Below the pieces are notes generated by a model, which ran no database searches, was not told the DNA's origin, and saw nothing but the letters and a program-made list of their open reading frames with translations. Shown one piece after another: positions 44,562 through 63,363 of a stretch of 64,000 bases of DNA (the stretch's first letter is position 1; the number at the start of each line of letters is the position of its first letter). The stretch lies in assembly GCF_013167455.1 (NCBI RefSeq), contig NZ_CP038328.1; one strand, given 5' to 3'. Made by a program: the position numbers and the translations under genes. Origin of the DNA: Escherichia coli O157:H7. GTDB taxonomy: Bacteria; Pseudomonadota; Gammaproteobacteria; Enterobacterales; Enterobacteriaceae.

Positions 44562-47107
44562 CGTCCACCTCCGGAGAACAGACCACCATCGCGCATCTGC
44601 CCGGTCACAACATCCATTGCCGCCTTACGGGCTACGTCATAAACCGCCTTCAGTGCCTGTGGCCCTATCTGACCGTTCGTGCCGTCGTTGTTAATCACCA
44701 CATGGTTATTCTGCTCAAACGTCCCGGACGCCTGCGACCGGCTGTCCGCCATGCTGCCCGGTGTACCGACATAACCGCCGGTGGCATAGCCGCGCATCAG
44801 CCGGTAAAGATTTCCTACGCCAATCCGGCTGGTTGCCTCCTTCGTGAAGACAAATTCACCACGGTGAACAATCCCCGCTGGCTCATATTTGCCGCCGGTT
44901 CCCGTAAACCCTCCGGCCGCAAAATGGAATTTCGCCGCAGCTGCCTGAATGGCTGTACCGCCTGACGCTGATGCGCCGCCGCCAATGGCGCTGCCTATAC
45001 TTCCGACAATCCCCACCATTGCCTGCTTAAGCAGAATTTCTGTCATCATGGACAGCACGGAACGGGTGAAGCTGCGCCAGTTCTGTTCACTGCCGGTCAG
45101 CATCGCCGCCATATTCTGTGCAATACCATCAAAGGTCTGCGTGGCAGCACTTTTAACCTGCGACATACTGTCCGTGGCGCTCTCTTCCCACTCACTCCAG
45201 CCTGACCTGAGGCCTGCCATCCAGCTCCCGCGAAGCTGGTCTTCAGCTGCCCAGGTCTTTTTCTGCTCTGACATGACGTTATTCAGCGCCAGAGGATTAT
45301 CGCCATACTGTTCCTTCAGGCGCTGTTCCGTGGCTTCCCGCGCTGCCTGCCGGTCAGTCAGCCCCCGGTTTTTTGCATCAATGGCGGCCCGTTTTGCCCG
45401 TTGTTGCTGTGCGAATTTATCCGCCTGCTGTGCCAGCGCGTTCAGGTGCTCCTGATAGGTGACCTTGTCGCCAAGTACAGCCAGCTGGCGTTTGTACTCC
45501 AGCGTCTCGTCTTTATGCGCCAGCAGGGATTTCTCCTGTGCGGACAGCTGGCGACGTTGTGCCGCCTCCTCCAGTACCGCGAACTGACTTTCTGCCTTCC
45601 ACAAATCCCGGCGCTGCTGGCTGATTTTCTCATTCGCTCCGGCATGCTTCTCCAGCATCCGGAGTTCTGCCTGAAGCGTCAGCAGGGCAGCATGAGCACT
45701 GTCTTCCTGACGATCGCCCGCAGACACCTTCACGCCGGACTGTTTCGGCTTTTTCAGCGTCGCTTCATAGTCCTTTTTCGCCGCCGCCATCAGCGTGTTG
45801 TAATCTGCCTGCAGGATTTTCCCGTCTTTCAGTGCCTTATTCAGTTCTTCCTGACGGGCGGTATATTTCTCCAGCGGCGTCTGCAGGCGTTCGTAAGCCT
45901 TCTGCGCCTCTTCGGTATATTTCAGCCGTGACGCTTCGGTATCGCTCTGTTGCTGCGCATTTTTGTCCTGTTGACTCTGCTGCTCAGCCTTCTTTCGGGC
46001 GGCTTCAAGCGCAAGACGGGCCTTTTCACGATCATCCCAGTAACGCGCCCGCGCTTCATCGTTAACAAAATAATCATCCTTGCGCAGATTCCAGATATCG
46101 TCCGCTTTCTTAAACGCGGCCTCTGCCTTAATCAGCATCTCCTGCGCGGTATCAGGACGACCAATATCCAGCACCGCATCCCACATGGATTTGAATGCCC
46201 GTGCTGTCCTGTCTGCCCAGGTTTCCAGCGTGCCCATGTTCTCTTTCAGGCGGCGGGTCTGGTCATCAAACCCTTTCGTCGCGGCCTCGTTCGCCGCCTG
46301 CAATGCCCCGGCTTCTTCGCCGGAACGCTGCAACTGAGCAACATACGCAATCTGCTCCGCCGTCACGTTATGGAACTGGCGCGCCATCGCTGTCAGCCCC
46401 GACGTCGGGTCAGTGGTCAGCTTCCCGAAGGCTTCAGCGACCTTGTCCACCTCCACGCCTGATGCAGAGGAGAAACGCGCCACACTCTGGCTGATGGACG
46501 CAATCTGAGCCTCACCGCTTACCCCCGCCTTAACCAGTGCGCTGAGTGACTCGCTGGTCTGGTTAAACGTCAGCCCTGCCGCCTGCCCGGCTCTGGACAG
46601 GACCAGCATACGATCTGCCGTCAGCCCGGCCTGATTGCCGGAAAGGACCAGCGTTTTGTTGAAATCGGACAGGGTTGAGTTGCCCTGATACCAGGCATAC
46701 GCCAGCGCACCGGTCGCCACCGCCAGCGAGGTGGCCCCCACCATCGGCAGGGTGATCGCACCGGCAAGCCCCCGGAACATGGGGATCATCCCGCCGAAGG
46801 AGTCCTTCACCTGCCCCCCCTGTTGCAGCAGGATCAGCCACGGACTTTGCCCACCTGCAAGCTGCGTGGCCACGTCAGTGAACTGCGCAGGCAGCATACG
46901 CATGGCGGCTTTATACTGCCCGACGGAAATTCCCGCTTTCTGTGCAGCCAGCGCCTGCCGGCTCATCGACTGTTCAACGACTGCCGCTGTTTTTTTCGCA
47001 TCACTTTCCGTACCGGAAAAATGACGCCTGACTCTGGCCATCTGCTCGTCAAATCTGGCCGCATCCAGACTTAAATCAACGACCAGATCGCCTACCGGTT
47101 CAGCCAT
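44558..47107 (-). CDS. H: Tail tape measure protein H
   Basis: 849 aa, coiled-coil rich with Gly-rich C-terminus; between T and M. Confidence 0.93.
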   Translation of the reverse strand: MAEPVGDLVVDLSLDAARFDEQMARVRRHFSGTESDAKKTAAVVEQSMSRQALAAQKAGISVGQYKAAMRMLPAQFTDVATQLAGGQSPWLILLQQGGQVKDSFGGMIPMFRGLAGAITLPMVGATSLAVATGALAYAWYQGNSTLSDFNKTLVLSGNQAGLTADRMLVLSRAGQAAGLTFNQTSESLSALVKAGVSGEAQIASISQSVARFSSASGVEVDKVAEAFGKLTTDPTSGLTAMARQFHNVTAEQIAYVAQLQRSGEEAGALQAANEAATKGFDDQTRRLKENMGTLETWADRTARAFKSMWDAVLDIGRPDTAQEMLIKAEAAFKKADDIWNLRKDDYFVNDEARARYWDDREKARLALEAARKKAEQQSQQDKNAQQQSDTEASRLKYTEEAQKAYERLQTPLEKYTARQEELNKALKDGKILQADYNTLMAAAKKDYEATLKKPKQSGVKVSAGDRQEDSAHAALLTLQAELRMLEKHAGANEKISQQRRDLWKAESQFAVLEEAAQRRQLSAQEKSLLAHKDETLEYKRQLAVLGDKVTYQEHLNALAQQADKFAQQQRAKRAAIDAKNRGLTDRQAAREATEQRLKEQYGDNPLALNNVMSEQKKTWAAEDQLRGSWMAGLRSGWSEWEESATDSMSQVKSAATQTFDGIAQNMAAMLTGSEQNWRSFTRSVLSMMTEILLKQAMVGIVGSIGSAIGGGASASGGTAIQAAAAKFHFAAGGFTGTGGKYEPAGIVHRGEFVFTKEATSRIGVGNLYRLMRGYATGGYVGTPGSMADSRSQASGTFEQNNHVVINNDGTNGQIGPQALKAVYDVARKAAMDVVTGQMRDGGLFSGGGR

Positions 47108-56938: not shown

Positions 56939-57458
56939 TCAGCAACCCCGGTATCAGTTCATCCAGCGCGGCTGCTTTGTTCATGGCTTTGATGATATCC
57001 CGTTTCAGGAAATCAACATGTCGGTTTTCCAGTTCCGGAAAACGCCGCTGCACCGACAGGGGGATCCCGTCGAGAATACTGGCAATTTCACCTGCGATCC
57101 GCGACAGCACGAAAGTACAGAATGCGGTTTCCACCACTTCAGCTGAGTCTCTGGCATTCTTCAGTTCCTGTGCGTCGGCCTGCGCACGCGTAAGTCGATG
57201 GCGTTCGTACTCAATAGTCCCTGGCTGGAGATCTGTCTCGCTGTCCTGCCTCAGTTCTTCAACTTCCCGGCGCAGCTTTTCGTTCTCAATTTCAGCATCC
57301 CTTTCGGCATACCATTTTATGGCGGCGGCAGAGTCATAAAGTACCTCATTACCCTTGCCACCACCCCGCAGAACGGGCATTCCCTGCTCCTGCCAGTTCT
57401 GAATGGTACGGATACTCGCGCCGAAAATGTCAGCCAGCTGCTTTTTGTTGACTTCCAT
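56913..57458 (-). CDS. Nu1: Terminase small subunit Nu1
   Basis: 181 aa MEVNKKQLADIFGASIRTIQNWQEQGMPVLRGGGKGNEVLYDSAAAIKWY... Confidence 0.95.
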
Positions 57459-57635
57459 TGTTCATTCCACGGACAAAAACAGAGAAAGGAAACGACAGAG
57501 GCCAAAAAGCCCGTTTTCAGCACCTGTCGTTTCCTTTCTTTTCAGGGGGTGTTTTAAATAAAAACATTAGGTTACGGCGAAGAAGAACGGAAACGCCTTA
57601 AACCGGAAAATTTTCATAAATAGTGAAAAACCGCG

Positions 57636-57647
57636 AGGTCGCCGCCC
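57636..57647 (-). other. cosN: lambda 12-nt cohesive-end sequence (cosB lies between here and Nu1, cosQ on the other side)
   Basis: Plus-strand AGGTCGCCGCCC is the reverse complement of 5'-GGGCGGCGACCT-3'; surrounding sequence matches lambda cos as recalled. Confidence 0.85.
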
Positions 57648-57846
57648 CGTAACCTGTCGGATCGCCGGAAAGGACCCGCAAAATGATAATAATTATCATC
57701 TACATGTCACAACGTGCATCTACGCCATCAAACCACGTCAAATAATCAATTATGACGCAGGTATCGTATTAATTGATCCGCATCAACTTAACGTAAAAAC
57801 AACTTCAGACAATACAAATCAGCGACACTGAATACGGGGCAACCTC

Positions 57847-58041
57847 ATGTCAACGAAGAACAGAACCCGCAGAACAACAACCCGCAACATCCGCTTTCCT
57901 AACCAAATGATTGAACAAATTAACATCGCTCTTGATCAAAAAGGGTCCGGAAATTTCTCAGCCTGGGTCATTGAAGCCTGCCGTCGGAGGCTAACGTCAG
58001 AAAAGAGAGCATATACATCAATTAAAAGTGATGAAGAATGA
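57847..58041 (+). CDS. Small conserved protein at the phage right end (YlcI/DUF3950-like)
   Basis: 64 aa MSTKNRTRRTTTRNIRFPNQMIEQINIALDQKGSGNFSAWVIEACRRRL...; same position as the unnamed ORF near the lambda right end. Confidence 0.6.
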   Translation: MSTKNRTRRTTTRNIRFPNQMIEQINIALDQKGSGNFSAWVIEACRRRLTSEKRAYTSIKSDEE

Positions 58042-58205
58042 ACATCCCGCGTTCTTCCCTCCGAACAGGACGATATTGTAAATTCACTTAATTACGAGGG
58101 CATTGCAGTAATTGAGTTGCAGTTTTACCACTTTCCTGACAGTGACAGACTGCGTGTTGGCTCTGTCACAGGTTAAGTAGTTTGAATGATTAGCAGTTAT
58201 GGTGA

Positions 58206-58412
58206 TCAGTCAACCACCAGGGAATAATCCTTCATATTATTATCGTGCTTCACCAACGCTGCCTCAATTGCCCTGAATGCTTCCAGAGACACCTTATGTT
58301 CTATACATGCAATTACAACATCAGGGTAACTCATAGAAATGGTGCTATTAAGCATATTTTTTACACGAATCAGATCCACGGAGGGATCATCAGCAGATTG
58401 TTCTTTATTCAT
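58206..58412 (-). CDS. Hypothetical prophage protein (YbcW-like)
   Basis: 68-aa ORF in the bor-proximal region; family assignment from memory only. Confidence 0.45.
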
Positions 58413-58697
58413 TTTGTCGCTCCATGCGCTTGCTCTTCATCTAGCGGTTAAAATATTACTTCAAATCTTTCTGTATGAAGATTTGAGCACGTTGGCCTTA
58501 CATACATCTGTCGGTTGTATTTCCCTCCAGAATGCCAGCAGGACCGCACTTTGTTACGCAACCAATACTATTAATTGAAAACATTCCTAATATTTGACAT
58601 AAATCATCAACAAAACACAAAGAGGTCAGACCAGATTGAAACGATAAAAACGATAATGCAAACTACGCGCCCTCGTATCACATGGAAGGTTTTACCA

Positions 58698-59108
58698 ATG
58701 GCTCAGGTTGCCATTTTTAAAGAAATATTCGATCAAGTGCGAAAAGATTTAAACTGTGAATTGTTTTATTCTGAACTAAAACGTCACAATGTCTCACATT
58801 ATATTTACTATCTAGCCACAGATAATATTCACATTGTGTTAGAAAACGATAACACTGTGTTAATAAAAGGACTTAAAAAGGTTGTGAATGTTAAATTCTC
58901 AAGAAATACGCATCTTATAGAAACGTCCTATGATAGGTTGAAATCAAGAGAAATCACATTTCAGCAATACAGGGAAAATCTTGCTAAAGCAGGAGTTTTC
59001 CGATGGGTTACAAATATCCACGAACATAAAAGATATTACTATGCCTTTGATAATTCATTACTATTTACTGAGAGCATTCAGAACACTACACAAATCTTTC
59101 CACGCTAA
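58698..59108 (+). CDS. DUF1398-family prophage protein (YbcV-like)
   Basis: ORF-track protein contains [30 protein letters not shown]...; start set at the internal ATG with GGAAGG upstream. Confidence 0.6.
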
Positions 59109-59399
59109 ATCATCACGTCCGGTTTCTTCCGTGTCAGCACCGGGGCGTTGGCATAATGCAATACGTGTACGCGCTAAACCCTGTGTGCATCGTTATTAAT
59201 TATTCCCGGACACTCCCGCAGAGGAGTTTCCCTGTCAGGGCTGCGGACATAGTTAATCCGGGAATACAGTGACGATCCTTCGCATCTGACATACATTAAT
59301 AAATATTAACAATATGAGATTTCAACTCATTGTTTAGGGTTTGTTTAATTTTCTACACATACGATTCTGCGAACTTTAAAAAGCATCGGGAATAACACC

Positions 59400-59693
59400 A
59401 TGAAAAAAATGCTACTCGCTACTGCGCTGGCCCTGCTTATTACAGGATGTGCCCAACAGACGTTTACTGTTCAAAACAAACCGGCAGCAGTAACACCAAA
59501 GGAAACCATCACCCACCATTTCTTCGTCTCTGGAATTGGGCAGAAGAAAACTGTCGATGCAGCTAAAATTTGTGGCGGCGCAGAAAATGTTGTTAAAACA
59601 GAAACCCAGCAAACATTCGTAAATGGATTGCTCGGTTTTATTACTTTAGGCATTTATACTCCGCTGGAAGCGCGTGTGTATTGCTCACAATAA
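59400..59693 (+). CDS. bor: Bor lipoprotein (serum-resistance protein of lambdoid phages)
   Basis: 97 aa MKKMLLATALALLITGCAQQTFTVQNKPAAVTPKETITHHFFVSGIGQKK...; lipobox LITGC; opposite strand to lysis genes as in lambda. Confidence 0.93.
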   Translation: MKKMLLATALALLITGCAQQTFTVQNKPAAVTPKETITHHFFVSGIGQKKTVDAAKICGGAENVVKTETQQTFVNGLLGFITLGIYTPLEARVYCSQ

Positions 59694-59724
59694 TTGCATG
59701 AGCTGCCCATCGATATGGGCAGCT

Positions 59725-60186
59725 CTATCTGCACTGCTCATTAATATACTTCTGGGTTCCTTCCAGTTGTTTTTGCATAGTGATCAGCCTCTCTCTGAGG
59801 GTGAAATAATCCCGTTCAGCGGTGTCTGCCAGTCGGGGGGAGGCTGCATTATCCACGCCGGAGGCGGTGGTGGCTTCACGCACTGACTGACAGACTGCTT
59901 TGATGTGCAACCGACGACGACCAGCGGCAACATCATCATGCAGAGCATCATTTTCAGCTTTCGCATCAGCTAACTCCTTCGTGTATTTTGCATCGAGCGC
60001 AGCAACATCACGCTGACGCATCTGCATGTCAGTAATTGCCACGTTCGCCAGCTTCAGTTCTCTGGCATTTTTGTCGCGCTGGGCTTTGTAGGTAATGGCG
60101 TTATCACGGTAATGATTAACAGCCCATGACAGGCAGACGATGATGCAGATGAGCAGAGCGGAGATAATCGCGGTTATTCTGCTCAT
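59725..60186 (-). CDS. Rz: Spanin inner-membrane subunit Rz
   Basis: 153 aa with N-terminal TM and coiled coil; follows R. Confidence 0.93.
59784..59966 (-). CDS. Rz1: Spanin outer-membrane lipoprotein Rz1, embedded in Rz in the +1 frame
   Basis: 60 aa [46 protein letters not shown]... with lipobox and Pro-rich segment. Confidence 0.9.
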
Positions 60187-60659
60187 ACCTCACTCTCTCT
60201 GACCGTTCCGCCAGCTTCTTTGAATTTTGCAATCAGGCTGTCAGCCTTATGCTCGAACTGACCATAACCAGCGCCCGGCAGTGAAGCCCAGATATTACTG
60301 CAACGGTCGATTGCCTGACGGATATCACCGCGATCAATCATAGGTAAAGCACCACGCTCTTTAATCTGCTGCAATGCCACTGCGTCCTGGCTTTTGGGGG
60401 AGAAGTCTTTCAAACCAAGCTGTTTACGGTAAGCATCCCACCAGCGTGAAAGAAGCTGATAACGTCCGGCGGCTGTTGATTTGAGTTTGGGGTGTAGCGT
60501 GACAAGTTTGCGAGGGTGATCGGAGTAATCAGTAAACAGTTCGCCGCCAACAATAACATCATAACCGTGGTTACGTGTCGGTTGTCGCCCGTTATCCGTT
60601 CCTTCTGACCACGCCAACATATCGAGGAAGGCTTTACGCTGAGGATTAAGATTTTGCAT
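60183..60659 (-). CDS. R: Endolysin R (lytic transglycosylase), lambda R-like with divergent N-terminus
   Basis: 158 aa; ...[20 protein letters not shown]...[18 protein letters not shown]... matches lambda R except the first ~7 residues. Confidence 0.93.
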
Positions 60660-60963
60660 TTTTCACCCCTGTCAGTCGTTCCCAGAAGTACGTCAGTGCA
60701 ACCGAACCCATCGCACCACTAATCCCCGCTGTCGCGAGAATCATGTAAATACTGAATCCACTTTCGATGCTGATCAGGCCACCAATAACACCGGTGAATC
60801 CTGATACCACTATTTGAGCCAGAGCATTTATCCAACTCCACGTTGCTTTACTCTGCTTCACATCTATCAGGTAGCGGACCAGACCGCCCCAACCTGCGAT
60901 GATCAGCAAAACGAGCCAGAACGCTCCGGCAAGGCTCTCTTTTTCGTGCATATGAATAGCCAA
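60646..60963 (-). CDS. Holin (three-TM class, non-lambda S type)
   Basis: 105 aa with three hydrophobic segments and charged C-terminus; immediately upstream of and overlapping R; possible dual start MAIHM. Confidence 0.7.
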   Translation of the reverse strand: MAIHMHEKESLAGAFWLVLLIIAGWGGLVRYLIDVKQSKATWSWINALAQIVVSGFTGVIGGLISIESGFSIYMILATAGISGAMGSVALTYFWERLTGVKNAKS

Positions 60964-61164
60964 TGTTTCGCCGCCGACAAAAGGCCGGGACGTTAAATGT
61001 CAGAAATCAGGCTCACGGGGTAATTTAACGACAAAGCACGGAGTTGATGCTCCCCACAAGCCTGGAATAAAAAAGCCAGCATGTAGCTGGCAACAGAGGG
61101 CTAAGCAATATCAACTCAACAGCTGAAGACCCCCTGGCTGGGGTAGGTTGGAAGGCTACTCACC

Positions 61165-61205
61165 GTTCAGAAACAGAAAAGCCCAAGGCTTTAAACCTCG
61201 GGCTT
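61165..61205 (-). terminator. Rho-independent terminator between Q and the lysis genes (tR'-like)
   Basis: Minus strand AAGCCCGAGG-UUUAAAG-CCUUGGGCUU followed by UUUCUGUUUCUG. Confidence 0.55.
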
Positions 61206-61272
61206 GAATTTGGATTACTGCCAGTGCGTACAACATTGGCAAAATATCAGATTTACATAAAATATATGATTT

Positions 61273-61962
61273 TTAATCCAGTTTTGCAATATCTTGCTGT
61301 GAAAATGTGGTCTTTTGTTTTGAACGTGTTTTCGTTAAAAGCAATAAAGCTTGGCTATCAAGCTGTAGAAAAATGTGTTTCATTGCAACCCAGCGTTCAG
61401 TAAATGTCTCAGACCAGTTTTTTGATGTCACTCCCACCAGTGATGCCAGCTCCTGGTATTCATAGGTCTTACGCCCTGCCAGCTCGTTCTTCACATCCTG
61501 TGCCGCCAGCCAGATCAACTTCTTCAAACGTTCCAGTGTCTTACCTGCAATTTTCCTGGTACCCAACAGAGTCTTAAACTCGCTCCATGCCCACTGCGTT
61601 ATGGTGACCTGATGTTCCCAGCGAACACTTTCGCTGTAACTCCACAGCAACCACGCTTTCTGATGTTCTTCGAGAGACAGAACCGCGCGGCGCCATGACG
61701 AGGTTGAGAACTCAACCTGGCTGACCAGTGCAATGGATGAACCTTTTGCGTACGACTGCTTACCGGAAATCGGCGGATTATCCAGCGTAATCATCCTGCC
61801 AGTTACCTCATCCAGAATGCGCGGCTTCTTTCGTTTGTATGTACCAGTATCAAATTGTGCATGCTCCAGCCAGGCTTCAAGCTGTCCTTTCGTTGCTCCG
61901 CTCAAATCAGCGGTAGCCACAATGAGTTGCTCGCGGACATACTGTAAATATTGGGTATTCAT
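61273..61962 (-). CDS. Putative late-gene antiterminator Q (non-lambda type); assignment mainly positional
   Basis: 229-aa ORF between rusA/ylcG and the terminator-holin region; not similar to lambda Q as recalled. Confidence 0.5.
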   Translation of the reverse strand: MNTQYLQYVREQLIVATADLSGATKGQLEAWLEHAQFDTGTYKRKKPRILDEVTGRMITLDNPPISGKQSYAKGSSIALVSQVEFSTSSWRRAVLSLEEHQKAWLLWSYSESVRWEHQVTITQWAWSEFKTLLGTRKIAGKTLERLKKLIWLAAQDVKNELAGRKTYEYQELASLVGVTSKNWSETFTERWVAMKHIFLQLDSQALLLLTKTRSKQKTTFSQQDIAKLD

Positions 61963-62081
61963 GCGGCAGCTCCTTTCAGTGTTTTGGCGTAATTCTTCAG
62001 TATCCGGTAATCGGTCAAAACAGAACCAGGAAAACGATATAAGCGCAGGCGCATCCAGCGGTGGCGAAGACGTTCTGCCAT
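61959..62081 (-). CDS. Small protein YlcG-like (40 aa)
   Basis: Hand translation MAERLRHRWMRLRLYRFPGSVLTDYRILKNYAKTLKGAAA; stop overlaps Q start. Confidence 0.5.
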   Translation of the reverse strand: MAERLRHRWMRLRLYRFPGSVLTDYRILKNYAKTLKGAAA

Positions 62082-62095
62082 ATAAGACTCAAACA

Positions 62096-62458
62096 TCATT
62101 CATTCCCCAGTTCGGTGATGGTCAGCTCCAGCTTCCCACCTTTGGTAACGGGCATCTTCACAACACGGTAATCAACGACCTGAGCATCATCCAGCCAGAA
62201 ACCTGCTTTGGTGAGTGCGTCAAAAGCGGCTTTTTGCAGATTATCCAGGTCACGGCGACGGCGATCCGGCATGTGGCACTCAATACGGATTTTCACTGGC
62301 ATAGCCAGGCCGATATCCAGCATGGAGCCTTTGATGATTCGGGCGACGTTATCACGGTATGCCTGCCCTTCTGCGCTGATGTGCGTGCGCCCGCGATTAT
62401 GCCGGTAGTAGCGATTATTGCTCGGAGGCCAGGGTAATGTGATGCTGTAGGTATTCAC
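62096..62458 (-). CDS. rusA: Holliday junction resolvase RusA
   Basis: 120 aa [44 protein letters not shown]... Confidence 0.93.
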
Positions 62459-62745
62459 GCCTTAATAACCCCCTCTTTCAGCCAGATAACCTGTGTTCTC
62501 GCCATACCTTCCAGCGCGCATTCTTTTGCATATGCAGCATCGACAAAATGTGTGCGGCGGTCGATTTCGTCGTGGCAGGCAGAACATGCAATGGTGGCAA
62601 TCAAGTCTGGCGGTTTGGTACCGGTGCCGCACAATCCAGTCAGCCGGATATGTGCCAGTACAGACGTTTCAGGGTTGCCATTACATACGCCAGGGATTCT
62701 TACTTGGCATTCCCGACTACGCGCTGCTTTTCTCAAATCAGCCAT
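62455..62745 (-). CDS. DUF1364-family Cys-rich protein (YbcO-like, putative nuclease)
   Basis: ORF-track protein contains [42 protein letters not shown]...; start at the ATG with GGAGG 5 nt upstream. Confidence 0.75.
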
Positions 62746-62908
62746 GATTCCTCCTTGCTGCCAGTCGCAACCATTTTTTATCAACCAGGCTGGCGGTATA
62801 TCCGAGCAGTGTTGGTATTTCGGATGGCTTCAGCTCAGGTTTACGCTTACGACGATTTGGTACTTTGTAGATGTGTCCGTTCATGACACGAATAAGCGGT
62901 GTAGCCAT
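62738..62908 (-). CDS. ninE: NinE-like protein (56 aa)
   Basis: Hand translation [61 protein letters not shown] overlap with ybcN stop. Confidence 0.6.
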   Translation of the reverse strand: MATPLIRVMNGHIYKVPNRRKRKPELKPSEIPTLLGYTASLVDKKWLRLAARRNHG

Positions 62909-63363
62909 TACGCCTCCTGCTTGTCACGCAGCAGCTGGAACTCGCAGCTCTGTGGAATAGTCAGGTGGCAGCCAATATTCATCGCCCAGGCTTCAACCTT
63001 ACACAGGAAGACATACATCTCTCCGGTACCAAGATCGGAGGTATGGCGTAACGACTGGATAGTAGTGATTTCGCCGGTTACGACATCAACCAGGTCCTTG
63101 GTTTCATAACCGAGGTATGTGTGTTTGAGAGCATCTTTTACCCATGCTGAAGTAGCGAACGATTTCCCCCTGCTGATGAGGTATTCACTGATTTCGCTGT
63201 ACCACATGTGGCTGAGTGCATTCTGGGAAAGACTGCGTCTCTCGCGCCACGGTTTAAGCACCATGCGAAAGCATTTGCCGTCTTCCAGATAAGTCTGGAT
63301 CTGCTGACCGACAGCGGTGAAGTTACCGCGATGTAATTTGATGCCATCTTGTGGGAGGTTCAC
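62908..63363 (-). CDS. DUF1367-family protein (YbcN-like, DNA-binding)
   Basis: 151 aa [55 protein letters not shown]... Confidence 0.75.

Follow-up and report, generated by a model that had tools for sequence, protein, structure and literature searches.

A conserved element with covarying helices, about 170 nt long, between lysis and packaging genes in lambda and in related prophages of Escherichia coli

The nested palindrome found upstream of bor in a prophage of Escherichia coli O157:H7 is the core of the main hairpin, P3, of a folded and conserved unit of about 170 nt. This element is conserved independently of its neighbours, has covarying helices, carries neither coding potential nor the features of a terminator, and is anchored between Rz, the last gene of the lysis cassette, and the small-terminase gene terS. 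It is an unannotated covarying element of phage lambda and of most E. coli genomes; the structure is conserved and probably regulatory, and is neither a site for bor nor a terminator.

The palindrome and the unit around it

The window—the whole stretch of 64,000 nucleotides of contig NZ_CP038328.1 (assembly GCF_013167455.1) that was analysed—does contain the nested inverted repeats claimed by the original prediction. The outer arms, TATTCCCGGA and TCCGGGAATA, are 10 nt long, 100% complementary and separated by a spacer of 46 nt, which encloses a second tier (CCGCAG/CTGCGG) and an apical tier (CCCT/AGGG) closed by the loop GTC; their positions are those of P3b, P3c and P3d in Table 1. The span first given, 59192-59258, lay about 9 nt too far left, the actual one being 59201-59266; the innermost repeat, announced as CCCTG/CAGGG, does pair at the tip, but over 4 bp instead of 5, since pairing the full motif leaves a loop of 1 nt. 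The distances announced hold: the palindrome ends 134 nt before the ATG of bor (59400) and starts 93 nt past the stop of ybcV (59108). Chance does not explain it. The motif TTCCCGGA-N36-56-TCCGGGAA has one occurrence in the window, where 100 shuffles give an expectation of 0.00, and the 91-nt stretch holding the palindrome folds at -35.3 kcal/mol on the plus strand (z -3.98) and at -33.6 kcal/mol on the minus strand (z -3.86), with 0 of 200 shuffles as good on either strand.

The unit that surrounds the palindrome is recognised by our covariance model R1 on the minus strand, with 152.6 bits and an E value of 6e-42, and has a single copy in the window. Its borders are sharp: among 63 distinct copies aligned with their flanks, conservation starts and stops abruptly and the flanks are unrelated. 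The copy of phage lambda lies at 46866-47034, where the reference record has no annotated feature. P3 is a long imperfect hairpin, whose tiers P3b to P3d form the palindrome; once stacked, P3a-d amount to 25 pairs—about two helical turns of duplex—broken up by internal loops (CACTC, GTTAAT, GATTAT) which are almost unchanged across copies. The second conserved hairpin, H1, has a loop of 17 nt containing an invariant TTTCTTC, i.e. GAAGAAA on the late strand. Between them, the middle segment forms a different short hairpin in each sequence type (CCGCG/CGCGG, CAGC/GCTG or CACGT/ACGTG), so that it is not reliably alignable across types and was left out of the pair scoring.

Table 1. Positions in the window of the element, its parts and the neighbouring features
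Feature	Position	Strand	Basis	Remarks
Whole conserved unit (P3, variable middle, H1), ~170 nt	59116-59286	minus (better-supported folding strand; sense of the Q-dependent late transcript)	covariance model R1 and sharp borders	
P3, four-tier hairpin	59187-59278	minus	folding of the window copy and covariation	
P3a	59187-59193 / 59272-59278			
P3b	59201-59210 / 59257-59266			
P3c	59216-59221 / 59241-59246			
P3d	59230-59233 / 59237-59240			
H1 hairpin	59118-59144	minus	pair changes on both sides	stem 59118-59122 / 59140-59144
Variable middle segment, then conserved linker AAACCC(T/G)GTGTGC	59145-59186	minus	sequences differ by type	
Predicted bor promoter, outside the element	59331-59365	plus	sequence and direct repeat D8	PhoP box TGTTTA-GGGTT-TGTTTA (59331-59347), 12-nt spacer, -10-like TACGAT (59360-59365)
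ybcV (DUF1398)	58698-59108	plus		moron opposite to the late operon; stop 9 nt from the H1 border
bor	59400-59693	plus		serum-resistance lipoprotein; moron opposite to the late operon
Rz	59725-60186	minus		spanin, last gene of the lysis cassette; constant upstream neighbour of the element in the late direction

A model of 32 pairs (H1 and P3a-d) was scored on 27 diverse representatives. Twelve pairs changed on both sides with pairing kept in the minus-strand alignment A3, and 15 in the plus-strand alignment A2; none of 500 column shuffles reached the observed percentage of paired cells or the covariation score, and sliding the partners by 1-3 columns left 28-55% of cells paired, compared with 89-95% for the model structure. 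The changes are spread over several helices: 5 of the 7 pairs of H1 change on both sides (CCGG/CCGG, CCTG/CAGG, CTCGA/TCGAG), as do 5 of the 10 pairs of P3b and 2 of the 5 of P3c. P3b thus exists as TTCCCGGA/TCCGGGAA in the window and lambda, as TTCCCGCA/TGCGGGAA in its commonest form, as TCATTGCA/TGCGATGA in the ES18 type and as TCTCCACA/TGTGGAGA at one further locus, L263. While the stems covary, the internal loops and the H1 loop are near-invariant from Salmonella to E. coli phages. With compensatory stem changes above the controls, the unit would belong, on these alignments, to conserved structured RNA motifs in the generic sense. The folding energy of the whole unit is no better than that of shuffled sequences on either strand (mean z about -0.4), so the case rests on covariation. 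A coding sequence or small ORF is rejected: no in-register frame is free of stops in all 27 representatives (the best is open in 17 of the 27, over P3), the candidate ATG is not conserved, and the lengths of the copies, from 167 to 184 nt, differ by non-multiples of 3.

A BLAST search with 59100-59400 finds full-length matches in lambda and its relatives at 96% identity; the structure is thus present upstream of bor in lambda, the locus which had been named beforehand for comparison. The core of about 110 bp (roughly 59176-59287) matches 371 phage records at 73-84% identity, and about 10,755 places, mostly unannotated, in 4,565 of 5,426 complete E. coli genomes. A genome has 1 to 10 such places, with a median of 2, which looks like the usual count of lambdoid prophages; and the contexts inspected are all lambdoid, either late regions or remnants beside iss. 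The whole unit is present in lambda, 933W, phage 21, ES18 and POCJ13. About 100 further copies came from IMG/VR, and a dozen from species genomes, where a loose gapped pattern returned 120 loci, 108 of them chance matches; the taxonomic range covered is that of Escherichia, Shigella and Salmonella. The query behind most IMG/VR copies was an 18-nt motif from P3a and the junction next to it, so that the invariance of this part is partly by construction; as the copies are related and many are near-identical, the counts overstate the number of independent events, and the effective sequence number in the covariance model is only 1.9. Salmonella ES18-type and E. coli copies nevertheless keep about 75% identity between flanks that cannot be aligned.

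A fixed piece of the late region, with bor as an occasional neighbour

Along the plus strand of the window come ylcI, ybcV, the palindrome and bor. The minus strand carries the late operon—Q, holin, endolysin and Rz, followed at some distance by the cos region and nohD/terminase—so that late transcription from PR' crosses the palindrome on the minus strand. From this position inside the PR'-Q late unit, with Q, S, R and Rz upstream on the same strand, we infer that the element is transcribed as minus-strand RNA.

A lambda-type Rz is found on the late strand, 20-2778 nt upstream, at 101 of the 106 loci whose sequence extends for 2 kb or more on the bor side. The opposite side is covered over 2 kb or more at 81 loci, of which 70 carry one of four unrelated terS families. 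The most compact loci have the element 10-20 nt past the stop of Rz and 55-113 nt ahead of terS. This synteny makes the element a fixed piece of the phage backbone between the lysis cassette and the packaging genes, with insertion points for morons on both sides, and bor, rha, ybcV and ylcI are indeed inserted on one side or the other: ybcV is present at 31 and ylcI at 45 of the 81 loci with at least 2 kb on the terS side, bor at 38 of the 106 loci of the bor side, and the element lies upstream of bor in 933W and ev017, downstream of rha with no bor in ES18 and POCJ13. In lambda-type phages it is 1.5 kb from Nu1, therefore a role which needs adjacency to terS cannot be general. At loci L004 to L123, either of two opposite-strand genes ends next to this one H1 border, ybcV at 9 nt or ylcI at 4 nt depending on the prophage, which suggests either a preferred insertion point for morons or the use of H1 as their 3' end.

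The mosaic structure also reaches into the element. The 933W copy (L244, 2927-3110) is a recombinant: H1, the middle segment and the 5' half of P3 are POCJ13-like, whereas the 3' half resembles lambda, as does the bor promoter. The crossover falls within the hairpin, where it leaves a C.C mismatch in P3b. Relaxed homologous recombination across stretches of roughly 80% identity is an established route to lambdoid mosaicism (PMC3945230), and the element as a crossover joint, with the 933W recombinant, fits this model.

As for bor itself, the structure is found at the related loci of 933W and ev017 and at plasmid iss, so its absence there, which would have told against the original prediction, is not observed. 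A link with bor nevertheless fails as an explanation, because the element occurs at loci without bor, bor appears to have a promoter of its own, the copy beside iss is decayed, and no U-tract follows the hairpin. A regulatory site specific for bor is rejected on the same grounds (bor at 38 of 106 loci against 101 for Rz, and absent at ES18 and POCJ13); the regulatory role suggested for the palindrome does not stand for bor, and may stand in a broader sense, for the late operon. Reportedly, E. coli borD is activated by PhoP, the work being attributed to Minagawa et al. in 2003. Between the element and bor, the stretch 59331-59365 resembles a complete PhoP-type promoter for bor, as read from the sequence: it lies 65 nt beyond the palindrome, with some 35 nt left before the ATG of bor, and lambda and 933W have the identical sequence; its PhoP box is a perfect match to the consensus, and it has the 12-nt spacing of the "architecture I" PhoP promoters (PMC3335776). 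A promoter scan near the site returned a single promoter-like match, at 59286-59313 on the plus strand, which is weak and distinct from this PhoP-type promoter.

On ColV-type plasmids the element lies upstream of iss, a working homologue of bor, and beside pseudogenes of Rz and Rz1. There it is decayed, scoring 85 bits against 138-183 for phage copies, keeping 24 of the 32 pairs and having lost H1. Plasmid pLH13-b-A (L246, 2436-3357), for example, holds a lambdoid late fragment made of the decayed element, iss and the Rz1 and Rz pseudogenes, flanked by IS remnants.

Several other features of this region of the window deserve mention. The prophage, which is identical to one at icd in E. coli O157:H7 PV15-279, is defective: at about 61270-63700 (L001, 8174-10594) Q gives way directly to ylcG fragments and a DUF4222 gene, then to xis, int and icd, so that nothing is left of the early region (N, cI, cro, O, P), and the late region including the element is 96% identical to lambda. 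Between Q and the holin gene, 61178-61257 on the minus strand gives a sub-threshold Rfam match to the Hfq-binding sRNA IsrJ (30.4 bits for a gathering score of 37, E 0.009), at the PR'-proximal spot which in other lambdoid prophages holds StxS, Pas and the anti-sRNA genes. A perfect 10-bp palindrome, GAGCTGCCCA-TCGATA-TGGGCAGCTC, occupies 59700-59725, where bor (stop at 59693) and Rz (stop codon 59725-59727) converge; no T-run follows, and it may serve as a 3'-end hairpin shared by both genes. Just upstream of nohD, a long inverted repeat at 57477-57544 (GAGAAAGGAAACGACAG ... CTGTCGTTTCCTTTCT) gives weak matches to miRNA families in Rfam; we take it to be the inverted terminase-binding R sites of lambda cosB.

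Known classes compared with the element

A non-canonical terminator had also been suggested. The element is not a terminator in the usual sense: the scan for intrinsic terminators finds none at the palindrome on either strand, the hairpin runs into ACAGTGACG on the plus strand, into AATTAATAACGATG on the minus strand, and other variants have a U5 run that is set off from the stem by 8-10 nt. With GUUUGU behind it, the middle hairpin might have formed a weak terminator, which is not a conserved feature since lambda-type and window-type copies do not have it.

Searching 57000-61500 with cmscan against Rfam 15 at E<=10 returned nothing overlapping the unit, all known ribozyme and riboswitch classes included. 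Dispersed repeats of the REP/BIME type are rejected, with 1 to 10 places per genome in contexts which are all lambdoid. A boxB of the nut type is rejected as well: the apical stem has 3-4 bp and a GUC/GAC triloop, it is deleted outright in POCJ13, and no boxA was seen. The known lambdoid sRNAs (LPR1/PreS, LPR2, 6S, svsR, EcOnc/AgvB/AsxR, Pas, STnc6030 and the Gifsy ncRNAs) are mapped elsewhere or not described here: LPR1/PreS lies between ea10 and ral, LPR2, 6S, StxS, Pas and AgvB/AsxR near PR', and svsR in cI; the Hfq RIL-seq study of lambda names LPR1/PreS, LPR2 and 6S, and nothing at the position of the element. Two alternative pairings inside the unit were discarded: a stem GUGUGC/GCACAC competing with P3 is broken in lambda-type copies and weakened in ES18-type ones without compensation, and for a pairing of the H1 loop (GAAGAAA) with the apical loop of P3, which is rich in pyrimidines, there is neither covariation nor a contiguous complement. 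By eye, none of the consensus sequences of IHF, DnaA, LexA, CRP or Ter fits the element. Nothing is described at this position in Rfam or in the open-access literature searched, and an older description behind subscription is possible. A CRISPRi survey of lambda (PMC10695390) counts bor, p78 and p79 among the genes dispensable for plaque formation, a list that does not bear directly on the element.

Strand and possible role in the late transcript

As the palindrome folds on both strands, an asymmetry between them was searched for in the pairing. Across the family, the same helices have 95.1% of their cells paired on the minus strand against 89.4% on the plus strand; the non-Watson-Crick cells comprise 70 C.A on the plus strand, i.e. 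G.U on the minus, against 18 G.T on the plus. RNAalifold finds on the minus strand a structure of -25.85 kcal/mol with 29 pairs, 11 of them compensated, and on the plus strand one of -11.99 kcal/mol with 18 pairs, 4 compensated, from which H1 is missing. A few G.U pairs of lambda-type and ES18-type copies favour the plus strand, where a five-pair extension of P3a (U.G, U.G, U.G/U-A, G-C) forms exclusively and where the window copy folds slightly better (-60.2 versus -53.9 for the whole unit). Altogether the late-transcript sense, i.e. the minus strand, is favoured, and the preference is moderate.

We infer that RNA, specifically that of the minus strand, is the active form, and that its function lies in processing or stability. 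The full statement we would make, and make tentatively as it falls a little short of being probable, is that the element is an intercistronic processing and stability element separating the lysis and morphogenesis segments of the late mRNA. It would most likely act as RNA inside the Q-antiterminated late transcript: the stems P3a-d and H1 would hold the near-invariant loop sequences in a fixed geometry, and a host or phage factor would recognise them in a sequence-specific manner. The element would thereby mark the boundary between lysis and morphogenesis within the 27-kb late mRNA, shielding either the S-R-Rz segment before it at the 3' end or the terminase segment after it at the 5' end, and the levels of the two segments could be set separately. 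We read the element as a cis-acting RNA recognised by its sequence because the Q-dependent late mRNA would be the one transcript to include it at all loci, and because it fills the sole long untranslated gap between Rz and terS, keeps its helices with frozen loops, and decays outside phages.

Some known systems resemble this arrangement. RNase III sites, like R1.1 of T7 or sib of lambda, are long imperfect intercistronic hairpins with internal loops in a long phage transcript, and the full transcription of the element would need an antiterminated polymerase. The 25 pairs of the stacked tiers, although broken up by internal loops, would suit an RNase III site, which calls for some 20 bp of nearly unbroken duplex. 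The likeness is one of predicted fold: the element has no sequence similarity to these sites, has two further hairpins (H1 and the variable middle), and has loops far stricter than RNase III needs. REP/BIME stabilisers, as between malE and malF, are stable palindromes between the genes of an operon, and like them the element could block 3'-exonucleases and set the levels of cistrons, but it is five times longer, has a fixed position and is not a dispersed chromosomal repeat. Hammerhead ribozymes of prophages, also conserved structured RNAs of intergenic regions, stand on either side of gene blocks, and a role in cleaving long phage transcripts into shorter mRNAs was proposed for them (PMC3088659); the element has no hammerhead or other known ribozyme core, as it matches no Rfam family. 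Since a plain RNase III or stabiliser hairpin needs no invariant loops, the true mechanism may be more specific than any of these.

This leads to a specialised RNA of the late strand: a self-cleaving ribozyme, a platform for protein binding, a switch that senses a ligand or a protein and thereby governs whether the packaging genes are reached by readthrough or by translation, or a precursor from which a trans-acting RNA is freed out of the late transcript. The covarying helices frame near-invariant loops (UUAAC, GAGUGUG, AUAAUCAA and GAAGAAA in the loop of H1) from Salmonella to E. coli phages, a pattern which is the signature of a specific tertiary structure or partner and not of a simple hairpin, and in minimal loci the element stands directly upstream of terS. 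Set against this, no Rfam family matches at E<=10, inspection reveals no convincing pseudoknot or loop-loop covariation, the Hfq RIL-seq of lambda has nothing at the position, and there is no conserved promoter or terminator to set off an RNA gene of its own. The lambdoid sRNAs—6S/StxS/Pas/AgvB-AsxR near PR', LPR1/PreS, OOP, svsR—are likewise non-coding and kept at conserved prophage positions; most are short Hfq binders with a promoter and a terminator, and the element has neither. As for cis-acting stem-loops with conserved loops in lambdoid transcripts, i.e. boxA/boxB of nut and put of HK022, the apical hairpin GCCCUGACAGGG faintly recalls boxB, but it has a GAC triloop where boxB has a GNRA-like pentaloop, the element lies about 2 kb downstream of PR', after the lysis genes, and not just downstream of an early promoter, and the late operon already uses Q. 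We regard a specialised RNA as unlikely, and equally unlikely its most far-reaching form: an undescribed class of structured RNA that lambda itself has and that prophages bring into most E. coli genomes, ribozyme or factor- or ligand-sensing switch, gating the packaging and head genes or uncoupling them from the lysis genes, which could for instance keep the terminase silent during read-through without Q.

RNA of the plus strand could be active instead, as a 3'-UTR, 3'-end or insulating structure for ybcV and ylcI, or as a structure that regulates or insulates bor from upstream, the latter being close to the original prediction. In about 60% of the sampled loci the stop of ybcV or ylcI comes 4-9 nt before the H1 border, bor or iss is found 115-150 nt beyond the element in about a third of them, and both the slightly better folding of the window copy (-35.3 vs -33.6 for the palindrome, besides the whole unit) and the P3a extension speak for this strand. 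This is rather unlikely to be the right explanation, as loci of the ES18, POCJ13 and L012 types are flanked by no plus-strand gene, the hairpins are not followed by a U-tract, the family-wide pairing and RNAalifold favour the minus strand, the predicted PhoP-box promoter of bor lies downstream of the element, and the iss-side copy is decayed.

The element could also work at the level of DNA, as a protein-binding site, a cruciform, or a conserved linker, i.e. a recombination joint between the lysis and packaging modules. Both its borders are mosaic junctions with unrelated flanks, the crossover of the 933W copy falls within P3, relaxed homologous recombination is a known route to such mosaicism (PMC3945230), and the very high conservation of the unpaired parts could reflect recognition of DNA. 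Neither a linker nor a duplex site, however, predicts compensatory double changes in five helices or a G.U bias on one strand, and no consensus of IHF, DnaA, LexA, CRP or Ter was matched by eye. The capability to form a cruciform, part of the original prediction, does not hold up well: perfect arms of 10 bp with a 46-nt spacer are poor at extrusion, and the pattern of wobble pairs points to RNA. A role in DNA appears decidedly unlikely. A relic without present function, kept by recent common descent and frequent lambdoid recombination, is most improbable: the many near-identical copies with an effective sequence number of 1.9 and the listing of the surrounding lambda genes bor, p78 and p79 as non-essential would suit it, but identity of about 75% persists across unalignable flanks, the stems are kept by compensatory changes, and the copy outside phages has decayed.

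For annotation, the palindrome is not to be read as a control site of bor. Lambda is probably the most closely studied virus, and its reference record is featureless between bor and lambdap78, where this element lies; over 80% of the complete E. coli genomes have the element as well, and so do Stx-converting phages, for whose reshuffling a recombination joint between lysis and packaging matters. If it does act as a processing and stability element of the late mRNA, it would give a handle on an old question: how lysis and morphogenetic messages that come from one late transcript of 27 kb can differ so much in amount and lifetime.
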